From positions 1 to 46,006 of the forward strand of contig JBNJDV010000004.1 of NCBI GenBank assembly GCA_051745185.1: a stretch of DNA of 46,006 nucleotides, given 5' to 3'. Source of the stretch: Bacillota bacterium. GTDB taxonomy: Bacteria > Bacillota > Halanaerobiia > Halanaerobiales > M55B127. The position numbers were made by a program, and so were the translations under genes. Below, piece by piece: positions 35,160 through 45,160 of this stretch (within the stretch, counting starts at the first letter, position 1; each line of letters begins with the position of its first letter). The notes under the pieces were generated by a model. That model was given only the letters and a program-made list of their open reading frames with translations. It did not search any database and was not told the origin of the DNA.

Positions 35160-36257
35160 TTATTTAAAAATTTTAGTGTTGATTTTACCTTCTCGGTATT
35201 GCATGATATCTTCTTCACCCTTAAGTACTCTTAAAGCTCCTTTGGCTAAACTGTTCATCTCCTCAGCCCCAGGATATATAAAAACATCGGCAATAAAGCT
35301 GACTTTCTTAGTAATTCTTGATGTAATATAATCGGAATGAGCAAGTCCCCCAGTTATAAAAATAGCATCTACATTACCACCTAATGCTGCAGCCATTGCT
35401 CCAATTTCTTTTGCTATTTGATAAATCATACCTTCATAGACTAATTTGGCTTTTTTATCTCCATTTTTTATTTTTTTTTCTATTTCTTGTCCATCATTAG
35501 TATCTAGATATGCTGTCAGACCTCCATTACCTAATATTTTTTTAATGAATTGGTCTCGATCAGGATTATTTTCAAAGATGTATTCTGCCAAATCTAAGGT
35601 GGGTAAAGTACCCACTCTTTCTGGTGAATATGGACCACCTTGATTAGCATTGTTAACATCAATAATTCTCCCCTTTTTTAAAGGCGCAATTGAAATGCCG
35701 CCGCCAAGATGAGCTCCAATAAGGTTACATTCATTAAATATCAAACCATTATCTTCAGCAGTTTTTCTTCCTATTGATTTTAAATTCAAGGCATGTGATT
35801 GGCATTTTCTCGGTATCTCAGGTAATCCTGATAGTCTTGCTATATCTTCAAATTCATCGACTGATATTGGGTCTACTGTATAAGCTGGTATATCGTTTTC
35901 TTTTGATAAATTGTATGCGATTATTCCCGCAAGATTAGAAGCATGAGAAGAGTTTTTGGCTATCTTTAAATCATGAACCATATCATCTCCAATAATATAG
36001 GTTCCCCCTAATAATGGATCTAAACCAACACCACCGCGGGCTACAACTGCATCAAAGTTTTTTAGACTATAATTAGACTTTAATAGTTCTTCTTTAATTA
36101 AACTGTATCTCCAATCTAACTGATCAATTATTTTATCAAACTTTTTCAACTTCACAGAATCATGCTTGAGATTCCTTTTCCAAACTTCATTTTCATCTTC
36201 AAAAATTGATATCTTAGTTGAGGTAGAACCAGGATTAATTACAAATACTTTATACAT
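35160..36257 (-). CDS. buk: Butyrate kinase
   Basis: VINPGSTSTKISIF, HASNLAG, IGAHLGGGISI and ITGGLAH are ASKHA-fold butyrate kinase blocks. No ptb gene is adjacent. Confidence 0.93.
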   Translation of the reverse strand: MYKVFVINPGSTSTKISIFEDENEVWKRNLKHDSVKLKKFDKIIDQLDWRYSLIKEELLKSNYSLKNFDAVVARGGVGLDPLLGGTYIIGDDMVHDLKIAKNSSHASNLAGIIAYNLSKENDIPAYTVDPISVDEFEDIARLSGLPEIPRKCQSHALNLKSIGRKTAEDNGLIFNECNLIGAHLGGGISIAPLKKGRIIDVNNANQGGPYSPERVGTLPTLDLAEYIFENNPDRDQFIKKILGNGGLTAYLDTNDGQEIEKKIKNGDKKAKLVYEGMIYQIAKEIGAMAAALGGNVDAIFITGGLAHSDYITSRITKKVSFIADVFIYPGAEEMNSLAKGALRVLKGEEDIMQYREGKINTKIFK

Positions 36258-36328
36258 ATTATCTCACCTTTCTAATTGCTTTATATTAAATATTTCAGCA
36301 ATCACTACCCCTAATCCTTCTTTTAATA

Positions 36329-37126
36329 TTAGACTTCTTCAAAAGATAATAAGCCGATCTTAATTGCTTTAATTACCAGTTCAATTTTAGAAGAAACATT
36401 TAATTTATTAAACAAGATTTTTTTATGGTATTTTACTGTGCTTTTACTAAGATGCATATCTTCAGCTAATGCTCTTTCTGTATATCCATTTGCTAATTTT
36501 TTTAAGATATACCTTTGATTATATGATAGATCATTAATCTTATCATCATTTTTTAACCTGTGCTTATTATTTGATTTTAAACTTATGTTACTTGAGAAGA
36601 GTTCCATCAAGTATATGATCTGCTCTGAAATTCCATCTTTGCTTATTAAGTTAATAAATCCATTGATTTCTTCATTGTTTTTAATTGGATATGCCAAACT
36701 ATACCAACTATTTAATGGTTTACAAAAATGGTGTCCGGGTAACATATAGACCGGTTTATTTATTTTAGCTGCTAGTTGTACTGCATTTGTTCCTGAATAT
36801 CTCTCTTTTAGCGAAGTCCCTATACTTATCCCCTTTGTTTTTAAATCATTTTTGAAATTTATATCACCCACCAGTTCTTCAATTGTTTTGTCTTTGTTGA
36901 CCAACAGTAGACAGTACTTTAATTTTATTGATTGTTTTAGTTTATCAGACATTTCTGCAAAAAGTTCTTTTGTCTCGATAGAGAACTCATCTAATTTATT
37001 TTGGTTATGAAAAAGTTTATCTTTTAATATGTATCTTTTTTTATTCTCCTTTAAACACCTTGACCAAGAAGATGTTACCTCTTCTTTTATTAATTTATAA
37101 TCAAAATACATATCCTCTATTTTCAT
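36329..37126 (-). CDS. LuxR-family transcriptional regulator with an uncharacterised N-terminal sensory domain
   Basis: C-terminal LSYNQRYILKKLANGYTERALAEDMHLSKSTVKYHKKILFNKL is a LuxR HTH. The N-terminal ~190 aa are unassigned, apart from an SWSRC motif near the start. Confidence 0.7.
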   Translation of the reverse strand: MKIEDMYFDYKLIKEEVTSSWSRCLKENKKRYILKDKLFHNQNKLDEFSIETKELFAEMSDKLKQSIKLKYCLLLVNKDKTIEELVGDINFKNDLKTKGISIGTSLKERYSGTNAVQLAAKINKPVYMLPGHHFCKPLNSWYSLAYPIKNNEEINGFINLISKDGISEQIIYLMELFSSNISLKSNNKHRLKNDDKINDLSYNQRYILKKLANGYTERALAEDMHLSKSTVKYHKKILFNKLNVSSKIELVIKAIKIGLLSFEEV

Positions 37127-37174
37127 CTATTATATACACTCCTAAGTTTTTACACATATTTGATTAATGAATTA

Positions 37175-38332
37175 TTATAAATTAGTGTTTAAAAAATCTA
37201 ACTTTTCTAGTATATAATATATGATCTTTCTTTTATCAACTACAATAGAAGCCTGTGTTAACATATTATTTCTATAAGCAACATATTTCCTTTTATCTCC
37301 TTTAGTTAAATAATTATTTATACTGGCCTTTATCTTATAAACATAATTTTTATTATCCATATTAGTAGCATCCCGGTCTATTTTCAAAACTTTACCTTCA
37401 GCAACACCATATTCTTTATACGGATAGGAACTAATTCTATATCTTATAAGATCATCTTTTTTAATTCTTAGTATATCTTTATTCTGTACTGCCAATTCAA
37501 CGATATATTTATTTTGTGAAGATGGAATAATTTTTAATACTTCCTTACCAGCTGGTATGTAATCACCTATATTATACTCTTTTATAAACTCAATTCGTCC
37601 AGCAATTGGAGCTTTTATCCTGTAATTCTTAAAATCGTTGTTTATACTTTCAATTTCCAATTTATCTTTATCAATTAGTTTTCTTTTTTCTATAATTCTA
37701 TTATCTATTTCTACTATTTTTTTATTAACCAGACTTTTTAATTCAAATTTAAGCTGGTTTAAGTTATCTTTTTTAGCTAAGTAGTCTATTTCAGTAATAC
37801 TTACATTCTTTAATTCCTTAAACTTCAATAATTCTTTTTCTTTTTTATCTATCTTCTTAACATAATAATTAGCTTTTTCTTCAAATGATTTCATTTCATT
37901 TTTTAGTAATTCAAACCTCTCATGAATCTTAAATCTATTTGACAATAAATATTGTTTAGTTTCTTTTAATTCATCAACATACTTCTTATTTGTTTTTATT
38001 CTCTCTTTTAAAAACTCTTTTCTTTTTAAAATATCTCCTTTTTTTATTTCAAATAATAGGTCTCCTTTATTAACTATCTTTTTTTTATCACTAACTATAT
38101 CTTTTAATCTACCACCTTTTATACTATATACGGTGCTTATATTATTTTGATACTTAATAATCCCGTTAGTTTTAATTATCACATCTAATTTACCATAAAA
38201 AACCCATAATAATGCTAACATGATTATAATTAAAACTATCAATATCAAAAATTTAATAAATACATATCTATTTGAATTTTTGTGGTATCTTTTCTTTCTC
38301 AGTTGTTCAATATCTAGATATTTTTTATTCAA
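37175..38332 (-). CDS. HlyD/CvaA-type membrane fusion (adaptor) protein
   Basis: N-terminal cytoplasmic stub, one TM segment (FIKFLILIVLIIIMLALLWVF), a lipoyl/barrel-sandwich start (GIIKYQNNISTVYSIKGGRLKDI), a long coiled coil and a beta-barrel end. The only available start is TTG at 38332 (GGGG SD, 7-nt spacer). Confidence 0.85.
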   Translation of the reverse strand: MNKKYLDIEQLRKKRYHKNSNRYVFIKFLILIVLIIIMLALLWVFYGKLDVIIKTNGIIKYQNNISTVYSIKGGRLKDIVSDKKKIVNKGDLLFEIKKGDILKRKEFLKERIKTNKKYVDELKETKQYLLSNRFKIHERFELLKNEMKSFEEKANYYVKKIDKKEKELLKFKELKNVSITEIDYLAKKDNLNQLKFELKSLVNKKIVEIDNRIIEKRKLIDKDKLEIESINNDFKNYRIKAPIAGRIEFIKEYNIGDYIPAGKEVLKIIPSSQNKYIVELAVQNKDILRIKKDDLIRYRISSYPYKEYGVAEGKVLKIDRDATNMDNKNYVYKIKASINNYLTKGDKRKYVAYRNNMLTQASIVVDKRKIIYYILEKLDFLNTNL

Positions 38333-38351
38333 TTATATTCCCCTATGACTA

Positions 38352-40547
38352 TTATTTTTGTTTTTCCCATAAATTATAATATCTTTCTTTTTGATTTATT
38401 AACTTTTGATGAGTACCTTTCTCTAAAACCTTTCCATTTTCTATATAAAATATCTGGTCACAGTCTTTAACTGACTTTAGTCTATGAGCAACTATTATAA
38501 TCGTCTTATCACTAAATACTTGGTTTAGCATCTTATAAATATTTTTCTCAGAAGAATAATCTAGATTATTAGTGGCTTCATCTAATATTAGTACATCTGG
38601 TTTTTTTAATAGAGCCCTTGCTATAGCTATTCTCTGCTTTTGTCCACCTGATAGATTTTGACCTCGTTCTGTAACCACAGTATCATATCTGTTTGGTAGT
38701 TGATTGATATATTTATGTATTTGGCTTTTTTTACTAACCTCGATTATATCTTTAATAGAGTGTTTTTTGTTATCTAAACTTATATTTTCTTTAATACTTT
38801 TATTAAACAAGAATATATCTTGTGGTACATATCCTATTACATCTCTTAAGTTTTTTGAATTAATATCATCAATATTACTTCCATCAATTAATATTTCACC
38901 ACTATTTGCAGCATAATACTTCATTAACAGTTTAATTATTGTACTCTTCCCAGAACCGCTTTTCCCGACAATCGCCACCTTTTGTCCTGCTTTAATTTGA
39001 AATGATATCTTGTTTAAAACTTTTTTCCTCATATTATATATAAACTCTACCTCTTTAAACTCTATTAATCTTTTTACACCTTTTATTTTTAACTGACTAT
39101 CACTGATTTGAACGGGATTTAATACCATAATTTCTTTCAATCTTTCAACAGCTACCATTGCCTTCTGTATTTTCGGTTGTAGTTTGATTAAATTTTGTAG
39201 GGGGTTATAGAAATAGGCTAATAAGGCATTGAATGTTATAAGCTGTCCTACTGTTAAATTGCCATTAATAACCTGATAACCACCTGTCCACAAAATAATA
39301 ATCTCTCCAACAGCTGCTAATAAGTTATCTATTGAATTTTGTATGTTTTTAATGAAATTGGCCCTAAAAACTTCTTCAATAAAGTTTAAAAAACTTATCT
39401 CATTATTAAGATAGATATTATTTTCTTCATTCAATGCCTTAATTGTTTTTATGCCATCTACAGTTTCAACTAAACTACTCTGTAGCTTTGCTCCTTTTTC
39501 CATTTCTCTTTTTCTTACTGTACTATATTTATTTGCAAATATTAATACTAAGATTATATAGATTGGAATTAATATCACTGCTATTTTAAAAAGATAACTG
39601 CTTTGATAGTATAAAATAACTCCTCCACAAATAATTAGTAATGAATCGATCATAATTGAGATTGCTGCATTTGATAGAGCGTCTCTAATTTTTCCCGAAT
39701 CCTGTATTCTTGAAAGTATTTCTCCTATTTCTCTTTTATCATAAAATGATATAGGTAGTTTTAAAATATGGTCAATATAGTCTGTAATTAAATTAATATC
39801 AATTTGTTGGCTTAAATATAGTGTTAAGTGGTTTCTAAAAGCATCCATCATAACTTTTAATAAAGTAACAGCTAAAACACCTAAAGAAATTACATGCAAT
39901 GATTTTAAAAGTCCATTAACTAAAATATTATCAATTAGATATTTAAAATAAAACGAACCAGTAATTCCAAGAGCTGTATAAACCAATGAAGCAATAAAAA
40001 TCTGTGTTATCATTGATTTATTGGTTTTTAACTGTATTTTAATGAAATCGAAATTACTTATATTTTGATTGTTGATTCCTTTGTTATCAGTTGGATTAAA
40101 TATCAATAGAATGTTTGTCCATATTTTATTAAACTCTTTTTTGCTTATTAACTTTAGTCCGGTTTCCGGATCAAAGATTAGCAGTTTTTTGTTATATATT
40201 TTATAAACCACAATAAAATGAGCAATATTTCTCTTTATAACATGGGCTACCACTGGTGTTTTAAGATTCTGATTTAAATTATTAATTTTAGCTTTGACAC
40301 CTTTTGCATTCAACTTCAAACTTTCAGCTGCTTTTATTAAACCAAATGCAGAAGTCCCTTTTTGATTTGTACCAGCAATTTCTCTTATTCTGCTTATTGG
40401 GTAGTTAATTCCATACAAATTAGCTACTGTTGCCAAACAGGCTGCCCCACAATCACTATTATCTTTTTGTTTTATAAATTTACTTTTTTTAAAAACCTTT
40501 AATAGTATTAAGTACAGATTATCTATAATATTATGCATATTAACCAA
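38352..40547 (-). CDS. Peptidase-C39-containing ABC exporter (PCAT; CvaB/LagD/ComA type)
   Basis: The N-terminal C39 domain keeps its catalytic residues (QKDNSDCGAACL Cys; AHFIVVY His; FDPETG Asp). Six-TM domain, Walker A GKSGSGKST, LSGGQKQRIAIARA, LILDEATNNLD. Confidence 0.93.
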   Translation of the reverse strand: MVNMHNIIDNLYLILLKVFKKSKFIKQKDNSDCGAACLATVANLYGINYPISRIREIAGTNQKGTSAFGLIKAAESLKLNAKGVKAKINNLNQNLKTPVVAHVIKRNIAHFIVVYKIYNKKLLIFDPETGLKLISKKEFNKIWTNILLIFNPTDNKGINNQNISNFDFIKIQLKTNKSMITQIFIASLVYTALGITGSFYFKYLIDNILVNGLLKSLHVISLGVLAVTLLKVMMDAFRNHLTLYLSQQIDINLITDYIDHILKLPISFYDKREIGEILSRIQDSGKIRDALSNAAISIMIDSLLIICGGVILYYQSSYLFKIAVILIPIYIILVLIFANKYSTVRKREMEKGAKLQSSLVETVDGIKTIKALNEENNIYLNNEISFLNFIEEVFRANFIKNIQNSIDNLLAAVGEIIILWTGGYQVINGNLTVGQLITFNALLAYFYNPLQNLIKLQPKIQKAMVAVERLKEIMVLNPVQISDSQLKIKGVKRLIEFKEVEFIYNMRKKVLNKISFQIKAGQKVAIVGKSGSGKSTIIKLLMKYYAANSGEILIDGSNIDDINSKNLRDVIGYVPQDIFLFNKSIKENISLDNKKHSIKDIIEVSKKSQIHKYINQLPNRYDTVVTERGQNLSGGQKQRIAIARALLKKPDVLILDEATNNLDYSSEKNIYKMLNQVFSDKTIIIVAHRLKSVKDCDQIFYIENGKVLEKGTHQKLINQKERYYNLWEKQK

Positions 40548-40550
40548 TAC

Positions 40551-40682
40551 TTATTGCAATAAATGGTATGCGATCTGGCCGATCATAAAACCTAATATTA
40601 CCCCAGCTGCAGTTGTAAAAAATATACCCAATACCAAATTATGTCCGCTTACAGGTCCCTTTAATAATGATAATAATGTCAT
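40551..40682 (-). CDS. 43-aa hydrophobic peptide C: leaderless paralogue of peptide A's mature region (candidate immunity peptide or leaderless bacteriocin)
   Basis: MTLLSLLKGPVSGHNLVLGIFFTTAAGVILGFMIGQIAYHLLQ. ATG at 40682 with an AAGGAG SD and 9-nt spacer. The track's 71-aa version starts at an SD-less TTG. It ends 3 nt before the ABC gene start. Confidence 0.6.
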   Translation of the reverse strand: MTLLSLLKGPVSGHNLVLGIFFTTAAGVILGFMIGQIAYHLLQ

Positions 40683-40766
40683 TATAACATTCTCCTTATC
40701 CTTCAATAATATTTGCCTCCCTTTTTGGTAAGGGGAATAACATTTAAAGTTATTCCCCTTTATCAA

Positions 40767-40916
40767 CTATTCTCTAGCTGCTTTGTTGTAACCAACATAA
40801 GCACCAAGAGCAATTCCGCCTAAACCAGCTGCCAGGTAAATAACAGTTGCTGTTGTACTACTAACTACAAATCCACCGTCTATTTCCATTAATTCCTGTT
40901 GGGTTAAATCTCTAAT
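40767..40916 (-). CDS. Double-glycine-leader peptide B (49 codons if started at AUU; 40 if at the internal AUG at 40889)
   Basis: Hand translation: (I/M)RDLTQQELMEIDGG-FVVSSTTATVIYLAAGLGGIALGAYVGYNKAARE. GAGGTG SD at 40927..40922, 5 nt before ATT at 40916. There is an in-frame TGA at 40928..40926. Below the ORF-track cutoff. Confidence 0.65.
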   Translation of the reverse strand: MRDLTQQELMEIDGGFVVSSTTATVIYLAAGLGGIALGAYVGYNKAARE

Positions 40917-40935
40917 ACGTTCACCTCATTTCTAA

Positions 40936-41109
40936 TTACTGAGTAGAGTAATAATATGCTGCTCCAACTGCTAAACCTATTGCTATACCTGCAGAAGCAA
41001 CTCCAAAGGCTCCTAATACTAAAGCCGAACCAGAAACCGGTCCACCACCATTAATATCCATTAATTCTTGATTGGTTAAAACATGAGAGTTATTAGCTGT
41101 TAGTTCCAT
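40936..41109 (-). CDS. Double-glycine-leader peptide A (57 aa precursor, 35-aa predicted mature peptide)
   Basis: Hand translation: MELTANNSHVLTNQELMDINGG-GPVSGSALVLGAFGVASAGIAIGLAVGAAYYYSTQ. GGGGG SD at 41120..41116. The leader matches the L(-12) E(-8) L(-7) I(-4) G(-2) G(-1) consensus. Below the ORF-track cutoff. Confidence 0.8.
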   Translation of the reverse strand: MELTANNSHVLTNQELMDINGGGPVSGSALVLGAFGVASAGIAIGLAVGAAYYYSTQ

Positions 41110-41160
41110 TTAATTCCCCCTTAATAGATATTTCCCGGGATTTACTATTTTCAATATTAT

Positions 41161-41180
41161 CATATTTTTACATATTTTTC
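41161..41180. repeat. Tandem 10-bp direct repeat in the promoter region of the peptide operon
   Basis: The plus strand reads CATATTTTTA CATATTTTTC (minus strand GAAAAATATG TAAAAATATG). On the minus strand it sits immediately upstream of a TGaTAATAT extended -10-like element (41162..41154). Confidence 0.5.
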
Positions 41181-41288
41181 CACTACCTGAAAGTACCAAA
41201 TCTTACTATTTTAAGAAAATATAATGTTGGAATAATTACTCTCTAGTTGATAAAAATACCATTTTGTCAGTTTATAAGTTTTAACACA

Positions 41289-41327
41289 TAAAAAAACGGC
41301 TATATAAAATGATAAATTTTATATAGC
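41289..41327 (-). terminator. Intrinsic terminator of the DUF368 gene, insulating it from the peptide operon
   Basis: GGCTATATAAAAT (41297..41309) pairs with ATTTTATATAGCC (41315..41327) across a 5-nt loop. A 7-T run follows on the minus strand (41289..41295). Confidence 0.75.
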
Positions 41328-41362
41328 CTAATCCTAATCATATATTTATTTTTAAAATATTT

Positions 41363-42136
41363 TTAAGTATTCTCACCTATCAACTCTAATATTATAATAA
41401 TTACTGCTCCAACAAAAAAGGCAAAAATACCATTAATAATAAGTGCTGAAGGGAATACTGCAGCACTTGAACCTAATATTAAACCTGTTAGAACAGTCAT
41501 TACCTTTTTGTAATGATTTTTTAATAATAATGAAAATAAGTTAGCAAATACTAATAGACCTAAAACAACTCCAACTGCAAATACAATTAAAAATAGTATC
41601 TCTAAGTTATTAATTGCTGCTAATAAAGGGTGATAAACTCCCATTAAAACTAATATTGTACCACCACTTATTCCCGGTAATATCATTGCAATACTTCCAA
41701 CAAAACCTGCAATAAAATATAATAAATAACCGTTTAAATTTCCAAAGTTAACTTGAAATTCCATACTAAAAAATAATGCACCAGCAAAGGCTAATAATAA
41801 AAATAATAACTTTAAAAAATTAATATTTCCCATTTTTTTATATGTCGAGTGTGCAGAAGTTATTACTAAACCAAATAAAAAGTAGTTTAATAATAGAGGG
41901 TTACTTGCATATACATCAGTAATTACTGATGAACCTATATATACACCTAAAACAGCACCCAACCCAATAGGTATTAATCTCTTTAAGTTTATATTTTTGA
42001 TTGCAATAATTAATGTTTCATATATATTTAATACTAAAGCTATTGTACCACCACTAACACCGGGAAGGGTGTTCGCTAAACCGAAAGGTATAGATTTTAA
42101 AAATAATGATATAAAAGAATTATTATTGCCTGACAA
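41363..42136 (-). CDS. DUF368-family membrane protein (PopT-type undecaprenyl-phosphate translocase family)
   Basis: The LPGVSGGTIALVL and LPGISGGTILVLMG duplicated motifs are characteristic of DUF368. About 8 TM segments. Confidence 0.85.
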   Translation of the reverse strand: MSGNNNSFISLFLKSIPFGLANTLPGVSGGTIALVLNIYETLIIAIKNINLKRLIPIGLGAVLGVYIGSSVITDVYASNPLLLNYFLFGLVITSAHSTYKKMGNINFLKLLFLLLAFAGALFFSMEFQVNFGNLNGYLLYFIAGFVGSIAMILPGISGGTILVLMGVYHPLLAAINNLEILFLIVFAVGVVLGLLVFANLFSLLLKNHYKKVMTVLTGLILGSSAAVFPSALIINGIFAFFVGAVIIIILELIGENT

Positions 42137-42212
42137 AATTATCTTCCTTTCTTATAATACAAATATACATGCTCTATAAAAACTATATCATATCTTTTAT
42201 TATTTTAAAATT

Positions 42213-42234
42213 AAAAAAACCCGGGAGCGCCGGG
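42213..42234 (-). terminator. Intrinsic terminator after the 53-aa ORF
   Basis: The minus strand reads CCCGG-CGCTC-CCGGG followed by TTTTTTT (42219..42213). Confidence 0.7.
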
Positions 42235-42245
42235 CAATATTAATA

Positions 42246-42407
42246 TTATTCATCTTCATTATATGGTAAGAGCTTGATATCATCCTCATCTATCTTCTCA
42301 AGGTCAATATTATGCTTTTTTACAAAATGATAGGTTGCTTGTCCTGGTGCATGAGCTTCTACAATCTCCTCTATTCCTTCTTTTTCATATATAATTTTAT
42401 ATTTCAT
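42246..42407 (-). CDS. Small acidic hypothetical protein (53 aa)
   Basis: Hand translation: MKYKIIYEKEGIEEIVEAHAPGQATYHFVKKHNIDLEKIDEDDIKLLPYNEDE. GGAGGG SD 7 nt upstream and its own terminator. Below the ORF-track cutoff. Confidence 0.55.
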   Translation of the reverse strand: MKYKIIYEKEGIEEIVEAHAPGQATYHFVKKHNIDLEKIDEDDIKLLPYNEDE

Positions 42408-42478
42408 TAATAATCCCTCCTATTTTCTTAATCCAATTAAAACACATCATTTTAGAAATTAACGTTAAATTTATTACA

Positions 42479-43252
42479 TCAACTTAAATTAAAAAATCTT
42501 TCTGTGTTTCTGGTAGTTACTTCAGCAACTTTCTGTAAAGTAGTATTTTTTAGAGATGCAATATATTTTGCTATTTCTTTTACATATAGGGGTTCATTTC
42601 TTTTGCCTCTATGTGGTGTAGGAGCTAAATACGGAGAATCGGTCTCTAATAAAATATTACTTAAGGGAATTTTTTGAATAATATCTTTTAATTCATGAGC
42701 ACTGCTGAAGGTAACAATACCTCCTGCTCCAAAATAAAAACCCATTTCCAAAGCATCTTGTGCCATTTCTTTACCTCCTGTGAAACTGTGTAAAAGAACC
42801 TTCTGATTGGACATTTTTTCTTCCTTTAATATAGCAATAGTATCCTTATCAGCATCTCTACTGTGAATTACAATTGGTAGATTTATTTCTTTAGCTAACC
42901 TAAGCTGTTTTCTAAATGCCTCTTTTTGTATACCTCGTGGTGAATTATCATAATAGAAGTCAAGTCCAATTTCACCAATAGCTATAACCTTATCTGCTTT
43001 AGCCAAATCTTTTATTACTGTTAAGGCTTTTTTATCTAGATCTTTTGCTTCATGGGGATGAATGCCTACAACAGCATAAATCATATCATACTGTTGGCTT
43101 AAATTTAATGAACGATGACTTGAAGCTAAATTTGAACCAACATTTATTATTTTGTTTATACCATTATCATATGCTCTATTTATAACCTGGTCTCTATCTT
43201 TATTAAACTTATCAAAGTCTAGGTGTGCATGAGAATCTATTAATTCTAGCAT
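42479..43252 (-). CDS. tatD: TatD-family metal-dependent DNase/hydrolase
   Basis: IDSHAHLD start, GEIGLDFYY, VIHSRDA, LETDSPYLAP. Confidence 0.93.
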   Translation of the reverse strand: MLELIDSHAHLDFDKFNKDRDQVINRAYDNGINKIINVGSNLASSHRSLNLSQQYDMIYAVVGIHPHEAKDLDKKALTVIKDLAKADKVIAIGEIGLDFYYDNSPRGIQKEAFRKQLRLAKEINLPIVIHSRDADKDTIAILKEEKMSNQKVLLHSFTGGKEMAQDALEMGFYFGAGGIVTFSSAHELKDIIQKIPLSNILLETDSPYLAPTPHRGKRNEPLYVKEIAKYIASLKNTTLQKVAEVTTRNTERFFNLS

Positions 43253-43272
43253 ATCTATATAGCTCCTTAATA

Positions 43273-43890
43273 TTAATAATTACCTATAATCTTTCTATTT
43301 AATGCTTTTAAACAAGCTTTCCCAACTGCTAATGGTAAATCCTGGTTTATATATGTAGATCCTAATAATCTTTCTTTTGACCCATGTTCATTATATAAAC
43401 AAATTTGCACCACTACAATTTCATCTTTAATACCTGTTTTAAATATATTTTCTATTCTTAGTCTTCCAGGTAGTTGGAGATATTTTTCTAGGATTTCAAT
43501 CAAACCCTTTGCTGTTTTATAAATTATAGGTTCATCTGGGTTATCACTGCTCTTTCCTTCAAAAATGTTATCATTAATTCTTAATCTATAATGACAGACC
43601 GGATTATTATTTTCCTTAAATATTGAAATGATTTCTAAACGTTCAATATCATTATCCTTGCTGTTATGTTCAAACTGGGCTATACTTATTTTTTTATGAT
43701 CTATATCTTTATCTTCATTAACTAAAATAATGGTTTCAACATCCCTAACAATTCTTTTGGGATTCCTCTTTTTATCAGCTATAATATGTACTTCATCAAT
43801 CTCATCTTCACCGGTTATTTTACAAGAAATTATACCGTCCAATTTGTTAATCTTTTGAGTCAAATCATCGAACATACTCTCTACCCCCAT
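43273..43890 (-). CDS. Hypothetical protein (205 aa), no domain recognised
   Basis: Long ORF tightly packed between the HD-GYP gene (22-nt gap) and tatD (20-nt gap). No motif I can name. Confidence 0.55.
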   Translation of the reverse strand: MGVESMFDDLTQKINKLDGIISCKITGEDEIDEVHIIADKKRNPKRIVRDVETIILVNEDKDIDHKKISIAQFEHNSKDNDIERLEIISIFKENNNPVCHYRLRINDNIFEGKSSDNPDEPIIYKTAKGLIEILEKYLQLPGRLRIENIFKTGIKDEIVVVQICLYNEHGSKERLLGSTYINQDLPLAVGKACLKALNRKIIGNY

Positions 43891-43912
43891 TATACATTAT
43901 AATTTAAACATC

Positions 43913-45160
43913 CTAATTCTGCTTAAAACTACTATTAAATGTTCCCTCTTCAATAAGGTCAACCATCGCTTCAACAAGTTCAGGATCAAACTGTTTTTTA
44001 GAACAATTTTTTAACTCTTCTATGGTTTCTTTTTTATTTAATGCTTTTTTATAACTTCGACCCGTTGTCATAACATCAAATGAATCACATATATTTAAAA
44101 TTCTTGCCCCTAAAGGTATTTCTTCTCCTTTAATACCATCTGGATATCCATTACCATTATAAAATTCATGGTGGTGAAGAATTATTTCTAGGTCATCATT
44201 TAACATATCAATATCTTTTAACAACTCGTATCCATAATAACTGTGTTTTTTCATTTCATTAAACTCTTCTTCGTCTAGTATATCATCACTTTTTAATATT
44301 TGGTCATCAACATATATTTTACCTATATCATGTATCTTAGCCATATTAACAATCTTTTCTTTTTTTCTTTGATTTACTTTTATTGTATCACATAATTTCT
44401 TAGTATAATTCGCCACCCGTTCACAATGTCCTTCAGTATAATGATCCTTGGAATCAATAACTTTTAGGAAACTCTCTATTATTTGGGTGAAAGTATTTAA
44501 TACTTGTAAGCGTGAAAAAAAGAAATCCCTTGCTATATAGATTAAAATTATCACCAACATGAAAAATAATTTTCCAAATTGAATATAACTAAAATAGAGT
44601 ATTAATCCTAAAAAGTATGATATGAAAATACTTTTAATTAATTCGGAAAGAAATATTGTATAACTAACCTTTTGTTTTTCATCAGATAAGTAAATTACAA
44701 TATATACTAAACCAATATTAATTGAAAAATATATTATTGATGCAAAAAATAATGCAATTATTATATTAGAAGTTAAAATAGAAATTGATAATTTATATAT
44801 TAATGCAGCACTACCCGCTGCAATACCAAACATACATCGATTAAATAAAAACTTATACCAAGGTAGTTTGTTTTCTCTAATATTTAATTCACTGGTTCCA
44901 ACAAAGGCGATTATCAATACCCAAAAAGGATTTAACATTGTCATTGCAGGAATTAAAACTGGTAAACTAATTGATGTTGAAGTATTACTTTTAAAATTTA
45001 TAAAGTAGCTTAAATTACTTAAAATAAACAAAGTTGCAAGAAAAAAAATCACATCAAAATTAAAATTACCAATGGGATATAAAAAAAATATACTAATTGC
45101 AAATAATATAAAAACAAAATACTCAATTGCTAAAAATATTTTTACTTTTTTATTCATCAT
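43913..45160 (-). CDS. Membrane-anchored HD-GYP domain protein (putative c-di-GMP phosphodiesterase)
   Basis: About 7 N-terminal TM helices, then HYTEGHCERV...KIHDIGKI...HHHEFYNGNGYPDG, which carries the HD and GYP signatures. AGGAGG SD. Confidence 0.88.
   Translation of the reverse strand: MMNKKVKIFLAIEYFVFILFAISIFFLYPIGNFNFDVIFFLATLFILSNLSYFINFKSNTSTSISLPVLIPAMTMLNPFWVLIIAFVGTSELNIRENKLPWYKFLFNRCMFGIAAGSAALIYKLSISILTSNIIIALFFASIIYFSINIGLVYIVIYLSDEKQKVSYTIFLSELIKSIFISYFLGLILYFSYIQFGKLFFMLVIILIYIARDFFFSRLQVLNTFTQIIESFLKVIDSKDHYTEGHCERVANYTKKLCDTIKVNQRKKEKIVNMAKIHDIGKIYVDDQILKSDDILDEEEFNEMKKHSYYGYELLKDIDMLNDDLEIILHHHEFYNGNGYPDGIKGEEIPLGARILNICDSFDVMTTGRSYKKALNKKETIEELKNCSKKQFDPELVEAMVDLIEEGTFNSSFKQN

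Follow-up and report, generated by a model that had tools for sequence, protein, structure and literature searches.

Small single-helix immunity peptides protect the producers of many membrane-acting bacteriocins, and the way in which they do so is an acknowledged gap (PMC6957408). CbnZ, the proven immunity peptide of carnobacteriocin XY, is 42 amino acids (aa) long, spans the membrane with one helix (N-terminus inside, C-terminus outside), and is encoded directly after cbnXY (Britton et al., PMC6957408). Three comparable small immunity peptides are listed there, namely BrcI (53 aa), EnkIaz (52 aa), and AbpIM (55 aa), and the mechanism is stated as not known (PMC6957408). The gene considered here, gene C (40551–40706, minus strand), lies on contig JBNJDV010000004.1 of assembly GCA_051745185.1, a Halanaerobiales genome, within a stretch of 46,006 nucleotides (nt) that is referred to below as the window. 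It follows the genes for peptides A and B of a class IIb (two-peptide) bacteriocin, and its predicted product is a leaderless single-pass membrane peptide that is paralogous to the mature part of peptide A.

We propose, with a probability of roughly 0.55, that C is a self-protection (immunity) factor for the A+B bacteriocin, because its operon position, size, single helix, and lack of a leader fit the CbnZ-type class. Gene C is on the same strand as both structural genes and directly downstream of them, encodes a product of 43 or 51 aa that lacks an export leader and has a single predicted transmembrane helix, and is the sole gene of the conserved operon without an assigned role; no other candidate immunity gene is present there. 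The original prediction had placed C where immunity genes usually sit in class IIb operons, a placement for which CbnZ, directly downstream of cbnXY, provides the precedent. To our knowledge, two-peptide bacteriocin systems have not been studied in the Halanaerobiales, which are salt-loving anaerobes.

Peptide C and mature peptide A

Peptides A and B both have double-glycine leaders. The gene for A (40936–41109, minus strand) encodes 57 aa, with a 22-aa leader and a 35-residue Gly/Ala-rich mature peptide, GPVSGSALVLGAFGVASAGIAIGLAVGAAYYYSTQ. Peptide A scores 34.2 bits against Pfam PF10439 (Bacteriocin_IIc; cut-off 27.1) and 23.7 bits against NCBIfam TIGR03949 (cut-off 21.5), which is the model for the lactobin A/cerein 7B family of class IIb bacteriocins. 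Peptide B (40767–40916, minus strand), with a 15-aa leader and a 34-aa mature part, passes the same TIGR03949 cut-off of 21.5 with 22.5 bits and lies under that of PF10439 (21.4 versus 27.1); the A and B families match each other in hhalign with a probability of 97%. Homologues of A are annotated only in Halanaerobiales metagenome-assembled genomes (MAGs), either as ‘Blp family class II bacteriocin’ or as ‘lactobin A/cerein 7B family’.

Translation of positions 40551–40682 (minus strand) gives the 43-aa form of C, MTLLSLLKGPVSGHNLVLGIFFTTAAGVILGFMIGQIAYHLLQ. Residues 9–43 of this form align with mature A without gaps, with identity at 16 of 35 positions and a common C-terminal end residue, as had been counted by hand in the original prediction. 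Identical positions include GPVSG, LVLG, F13, A18, G19, G23, G27, Y31, and Q35. The match exceeds chance: 16 identities were not attained in any of 200,000 shuffles that preserved composition (p < 5e-6), and the A and C families, compared with hhalign, gave a probability of 95% with an E value of 2.7e-8 over 32 ungapped columns. When mature A was compared by blastp with all open reading frames (ORFs) of the neighbourhood, C was recovered at an E value of 4e-8. B was considered as the parent of C and rejected, the hhalign comparison of B with C being not significant. None of the 43-, 51-, and 71-aa forms of C matches PF10439, and the 51-aa form gives no match to TIGR03949; by its own criteria, the lactobin A/cerein 7B family does not include C, which is instead derived from it.

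At the DNA level, A and C are identical at only 48 of 105 positions, and Ser4 is encoded by TCT in A but by AGC in C, a synonymous divergence that had already been pointed out. Identity between A and C ranges from 9 to 16 of 35 residues over all locus combinations, and cognate pairs are no closer (12.9 identities) than non-cognate ones (13.0), so that neither co-evolution nor gene conversion between A and C is signalled. Accordingly, the duplication that gave rise to C from A is older than the radiation of the clade, and no gene conversion has occurred since.

Related loci were gathered from contigs that encode A homologues and from pattern scans of genomes and metagenomes based on the C alignment. 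All related loci, from nine species-level Halanaerobiales genomes together with 11 contigs from metagenomes, have the order A, B, C, and then exporter, and C is present in 15 of the 15 distinct locus variants compared, with its reading frame, starts, and Shine–Dalgarno (SD) sites retained. The ratio of non-synonymous to synonymous substitution rates (dN/dS) of C is 0.13 at a dS of about 1.25 (pairwise, 13 distinct loci), which reflects purifying selection. The presence of C in all of these variants, with saturated synonymous sites and a low dN/dS, bears out the earlier view of an old, maintained duplication and marks C as a real gene. Could the similarity instead be a chance or compositional match between glycine-zipper helices, or C a decaying pseudogene? 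Both peptides are short, hydrophobic, and Gly-rich, and composition can inflate scores. Yet shuffled sequences never attain the observed identity, the shared GPVSG..LVLG.F residues lie outside the zipper, the end residue is the same, and a pseudogene would not be expected to keep a 43-codon frame, its starts, and its SD sites in all 15 variants at a dN/dS of 0.13 with saturated dS. This explanation is refuted as far as sequence evidence goes, and we accord it almost no probability.

The mature parts of A and B are almost invariant (dN/dS 0.07 and 0.06, respectively) despite saturated synonymous sites, which is unusual for a bacteriocin locus; their leaders have dN/dS values of 0.25–0.41. Gene C was never found without A and B in the genome and metagenome pattern scans, which recovered syntenic Halanaerobiales loci only, along with two spurious actinomycete fragments. 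When 1.84 billion representative proteins were searched exhaustively with C by phmmer, one cluster was returned, which indicates that the C family is confined to this Halanaerobiales clade, and a word-indexed search returned a single near-identical cluster. C has no match in Pfam or NCBIfam, PDB sequence searches with A and C yielded chance matches only, and no similarity to a known immunity protein emerged via Pfam, NCBIfam, or PDB. The expectation that a double-glycine leader peptide is always paired with a leaderless copy holds for all related Halanaerobiales loci and fails at three other Blp-type loci: the blastp comparison that detects C at 4e-8 found no leaderless paralogue within 6 kb of the Blp genes of C. 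perfringens, B. mycoides, or L. salivarius.

Predicted membrane helix, export signals, and proposed immunity function

A double-glycine leader is lacking in C, and the hydrophobic −4/−12 pattern is absent. The two residues before GPVSG in its relatives are LK, LS, IQ, LR, or LQ, and never G followed by G, A, or S; positions −2 and −1 are L or I followed by K, S, Q, or R in 14 of 14 variants, and position −4 is S or T. The original prediction had noted that LK replaces the GG of A. The lack of a double-glycine leader is upheld, but the K is not conserved among relatives. Two other routes of export were considered and rejected. A cryptic double-glycine site, GPVxG|HN, has a variable −2 residue (S/E/Q/A/T), and its −4 position is occupied by P. 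A Sec signal peptide would have to rely on the hydrophobic stretch MTLLSLL, which at 7–9 residues is too short, and no AxA site is present.

C is the most hydrophobic of the three peptides. The combined share of Gly, Ala, and Ser is 54% in mature A and falls to 41% in B and 29% in C. The best 19-aa core begins at mature residue 8 in A, B, and C alike, and its summed Hessa free energy of insertion (ΔG) is −0.8 to −2.1 kcal/mol in C, −0.3 to +0.7 kcal/mol in A, and +0.8 to +2.4 kcal/mol in B. The 43-aa form of C contains at most one Lys, which is not conserved, and is not cationic. These properties also bear on the possibility that the bacteriocin has a third component, namely C, which would be leaderless, released, and active alongside A and B. 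In favour of this, C is a homologue of A and shares the zipper with both A and B, and multi-peptide leaderless bacteriocins with related subunits exist. Such a role is very unlikely because C has no double-glycine site for the C39 double-glycine exporter that is the only transporter of the cluster, its core favours stable membrane insertion, the single Lys before GPVSG is not conserved so that a cationic character is missing, and its gene lies 3′ of a hairpin, apart from A and B. Leaderless (class IId-type) bacteriocins are cationic, secreted, active peptides that have transport and immunity genes of their own, a description that C, with no conserved charge and a C39 exporter as the only transporter nearby, does not fit. 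As an immunity factor, C would instead be retained in the membrane of the producer.

Single-sequence AlphaFold2 prediction for the 51-aa form gave a helix at residues 2–15, a break at K16-G17-P18, and a second helix at residues 19–50, with a mean predicted local distance difference test (pLDDT) score of 86. On a helical wheel, G19, G23, and G27, which are invariant in A, B, and C, fall on a common face, at 140 degrees. Directly across the helix from this glycine face, at 320 degrees, is the direction in which side chains become larger from A to C: the invariant G14, A21, A25, A28, and A29 of A are replaced in C by F, I/L, M/I/L/V, Q, and I/V/L, respectively. This difference between the helix faces of A and C suggests that one packing surface has been kept while the other has been lost, and C probably acts by toxin mimicry via the retained zipper face.

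A scheme that accommodates these features would run as follows. The mature part of A was duplicated long ago with loss of the double-glycine leader, which yielded a presumably non-exported C. This peptide, which retains the G19xxxG23xxxG27 packing face common to all three peptides, would insert in the producer membrane as one long helix, with its short N-terminal helix in the cytoplasm. C could then form pairs with A or B as they arrive or, alternatively, take the place of A on a membrane target. The second small-residue face of A (G14, A21, A25, A28/A29) is bulky in C, and the resulting complex would be unable to grow or close as an active pore. Transcription of C after the hairpin and coupling to the exporter gene would mean that it is made together with the export machinery. 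A more specific version, in which C is a dominant-negative cap, that is, a toxin-derived duplicate that pairs through the zipper and does not allow assembly to be extended, perhaps with 51- and 43-aa isoforms that behave like a holin and antiholin, is tentative and on balance somewhat improbable.

Several observations weigh against the assignment of C as an immunity factor. The helical-face asymmetry is marginal (permutation p 0.06) and post hoc, and it could merely reflect selection for hydrophobicity. Cognate A and C bear no signal of co-evolution, and the near-invariance of mature A and B (dN/dS 0.06–0.07) is unusual for an arms race between toxin and immunity. AbpIM, the one other known small class IIb immunity peptide that was compared with its toxins, is unrelated to them, so that paralogy is not the usual route to immunity. 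The tight translational coupling of C to the exporter also fits an exporter-linked role, and an immunity gene could lie elsewhere in the genome. The source organisms are all uncultured MAGs.

Start signals and operon layout

The original prediction had placed the start of C at 40682. This ATG and its SD site are invariant, but a second conserved in-frame start at 40706 had been overlooked. In an alignment of the spacer between B and C from 16 distinct loci, the first signal is a GGAGG-type site followed after 7–10 nt by TTG in all loci (in the window, GGGAGG at 40716–40721 and TTG at 40704–40706, minus strand); the upstream TTG is ATG in L008, L018, and L032. The second signal is the ATG at 40680–40682 (minus strand), exactly 24 nt 3′ of the TTG or ATG, with an invariant AAGGAG (40692–40697) 9 nt before it. 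No indels, frameshifts, or stops occur between the two starts in any locus, with indels found only 5′ of the TTG, and the dual-start motif, in which each start has its own ribosome-binding site, is kept in 16 of 16 distinct spacers. In the longer reading, AAGGAG forms codons 4–5. AAG and GAG make up only 23% of Lys/Glu codons in the window, and Lys codons that neighbour AAGGAG vary between AAA and AAG among loci; because of this rare usage and the variation nearby, the motif is constrained as nucleotides and therefore acts as a ribosome-binding site. The 51-aa form begins MKDKENVIMTLL. The product of C may be the 51-aa form, the 43-aa form, or both, and public gene callers are likewise divided between the two starts. 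A 71-aa form that starts at a TTG at 40766, also raised in the original prediction, was rejected: it is not conserved, and its extra part consists of the hairpin and spacer, the length of which varies and which one subgroup lacks.

Between B and C, a 12-bp stem-loop (40730–40760, minus strand) lies immediately 3′ of the B stop codon, with a folding energy of −21 kcal/mol for a 100-nt piece and a z score of −3.2. Per-locus folding and inspection showed a stem 3′ of B in most loci, with differing sequences; it is followed by a T-run in one subgroup only and is absent in another. RNAalifold applied to the B–C spacer recovered only 6 base pairs from a gappy alignment. The hairpin is probably a partial terminator or a messenger RNA stability element that separates A and B from C and the exporter. 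Gene C starts 61–85 nt after the B stop codon in the window and at the equivalent position in all related loci.

The exporter that follows C is an ABC protein with an N-terminal C39 peptidase domain (38352–40538, minus strand; Pfam Peptidase_C39 at 1.2e-41, with ABC_membrane and ABC_tran). Its conserved ATG (40536–40538) is 12 nt after the C stop codon (10–15 nt across loci) and has no SD site before it in any locus. The TTG at 40547 given by the ORF finder lacks conservation. Since the ATG is close to the C stop codon and has no SD site, translation of the exporter would be coupled to that of C; the position of C after the hairpin and its coupling to the exporter together suggest that the expression of C follows that of the export genes and not the level of A and B. 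The exporter is followed by its HlyD/LcnD-type accessory (membrane-fusion) protein (37175–38332, minus strand; Pfam HlyD_3 at 9.4e-17, with LcnD_C and AprE matches in relatives). A C39-ABC exporter and accessory protein that adjoin the peptide genes are features of class IIb systems, and the operon overall is of the ordinary class IIb bacteriocin type. The cluster ends with a LuxR/GerE-type regulator with an N-terminal DhaR-N/GAF-like domain (36329–37126, minus strand), syntenic in all long loci. It is the sole regulator in the cluster, a cytoplasmic protein with a GerE/LuxR helix–turn–helix and a DhaR-N/GAF-like sensor domain. Genes for a pheromone peptide, a histidine kinase, and a response regulator are absent from the cluster, which is atypical for class II bacteriocin loci.

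This arrangement raises the possibility that C is an exporter-associated or sensing peptide, either a modulator of the C39-ABC/HlyD machinery or a sensor of mature A that signals to the LuxR-type regulator. The 10–15 nt between the C stop codon and an exporter ATG that lacks an SD site, the grouping of C after the hairpin with the export genes, and the absence of a pheromone, kinase, and response-regulator set where only a cytoplasmic LuxR/GAF-like regulator is present are all compatible with such a role. C would nevertheless have just 8–16 cytoplasmic residues with which to signal, and its position and size match those of known immunity peptides. We also know of no such small subunit for bacteriocin ABC exporters, and we consider this explanation unlikely.

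Conserved elements upstream of the operon (41133–41200, minus strand) were identified by alignment of the 230 nt 5′ of A in 19 loci. These comprise TTTGGTAC (41193–41200), followed by AGTGG, ahead of a −10-like TATGATAATATT box, and a palindrome, TCCCGGGA (41133–41140), in the 5′ untranslated region of A about 25 nt before its ATG. The palindrome and the TTTGGTAC...AGTGG pair are candidate operator sites of the LuxR-type regulator. No ATG, GTG, or TTG precedes the double-glycine leader of B to serve as a start; an ATT/ATC codon at 40914–40916 is conserved in 13 of 14 distinct loci, 5–6 nt 3′ of an SD site (GAGGTG), and as the sole plausible candidate the ATT is likely the start codon of B. Such a rare start codon may set the B:A ratio. 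In L012 (~2738–2760) and L013 (~497–520), which are contigs of one study, the ATT is out of frame through one extra base in an A/T run, and B has either undergone a frameshift or begins at a GTG within the SD site; the extra base could be an assembly error.

The cluster context is fixed in all species-level genomes, with HD-domain, TatD, and 53-aa ORF genes and then a butyrate kinase gene (window 35160–45160, L001–L024). Every locus has, between its TatD gene and the bacteriocin operon, a conserved ORF for an acidic, soluble product of 53–55 aa (42246–42407, minus strand, in the window) that matches nothing in Pfam or NCBIfam. An Rfam scan of 36000–42500 likewise gave no match. Just upstream of the operon is a DUF368/VCA0040-like gene for an undecaprenyl-phosphate translocase-like protein (41363–42136, minus strand), which is present only in the subgroup of the window (with L001–L004), is absent in L005–L015, and has its own terminator at 41298–41328. 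UppP is the class IIb receptor example for lactococcin G (PMC8538875). As an undecaprenyl-cycle enzyme, UppP makes the presence of a gene of undecaprenyl type near the operon worth recording.

Receptors are central to another explanation, in which C masks the membrane receptor on which A and B dock and thereby leaves the producer without a free target, with no binding of C to the toxin. Class IIb bacteriocins use specific membrane-protein receptors, and LagC and EntI depend on target-cell components (PMC8538875). C keeps the N-terminal GP(V/I)xG...LVLG.F motif of A along with the zipper, and the DUF368 gene adjoins the operon in the subgroup of the window. That gene, however, is missing in most related loci and has its own terminator, and receptor masking and direct capping of the toxin are not separable by sequence alone. 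We regard receptor masking as rather improbable and favour a role for C as an immunity factor that mimics the toxin.

Comparison with known systems

Small single-helix immunity peptides are already a known kind, and paralogy of such a peptide to the mature domain of its own toxin was not found described; literature text searches recovered no earlier case in which an immunity protein is a homologue of its cognate bacteriocin, which is a weak negative. If the proposed function is correct, the locus would illustrate a route by which toxin genes give rise to immunity genes and would suggest the design of peptide inhibitors against glycine-zipper pore formers. Comparison of A with C reduces the proposal to one retained and one lost helix face, a model of mimicry or capping that can be tested by mutation, and all three peptides can be chemically synthesized. 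Should the capping model prove wrong, this locus would still offer a clean case of a two-peptide bacteriocin operon conserved in the Halanaerobiales.

Relative to the lactobin A/cerein 7B family (TIGR03949, PF10439), C has the mature-domain fold and zipper of A, has no leader, and is more hydrophobic. Like CbnZ of Carnobacterium, with which it was compared by published description only, C is similar in size, has one helix and no leader, and is encoded directly downstream of two structural genes; the N-in/C-out topology proposed for C is the one measured for CbnZ. The function of CbnZ is proven, whereas that of C is inferred from sequence. C also resembles AbpIM (ABP-118, Ligilactobacillus salivarius pMP118) and BrcI (brochocin-C), which are hydrophobic immunity peptides of 53–55 aa encoded after two peptide genes. 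The ABP-118 and brochocin-C bacteriocins are Gly-rich peptides of the same Blp/lactobin-type family as A and B, and the brochocin operon reportedly has the same order as this locus, with peptides, immunity gene, ABC exporter, and accessory protein. C is a demonstrable paralogue of the neighbouring toxin peptide; in contrast, AbpIM has no similarity to Abp118 alpha or beta when tested in the same way as C and A, with sequences taken from the pMP118 annotation.

Control of a membrane-lesion protein by a near-identical or paralogous membrane protein is known from holin/antiholin pairs (lambda S105/S107) and from CidA/LrgA-type systems. Like the lambda holin gene, gene C has two conserved in-frame starts, of which the upstream one adds a charged N-terminal head; the lambda forms differ by 2 residues and those of C by 8. 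Holin/antiholin and CidA/LrgA are phage and autolysis systems rather than secreted bacteriocins, and the isoforms of C are predicted from their start signals. In the yeast killer toxin K2, as well as K1 and K28, immunity is encoded within the toxin precursor, and the authors of the K2 study liken its immunity piece to CbnZ and describe the mode of action of such peptides as an open gap (bioRxiv 10.1101/2023.10.24.563802). As proposed for C, protection in K2 comes from a small single-transmembrane piece that originates from the toxin gene. Unlike C, K2 is a eukaryotic viral toxin, and its immunity piece is the toxin’s own signal sequence, encoded in one ORF with it, rather than a duplicated mature domain.

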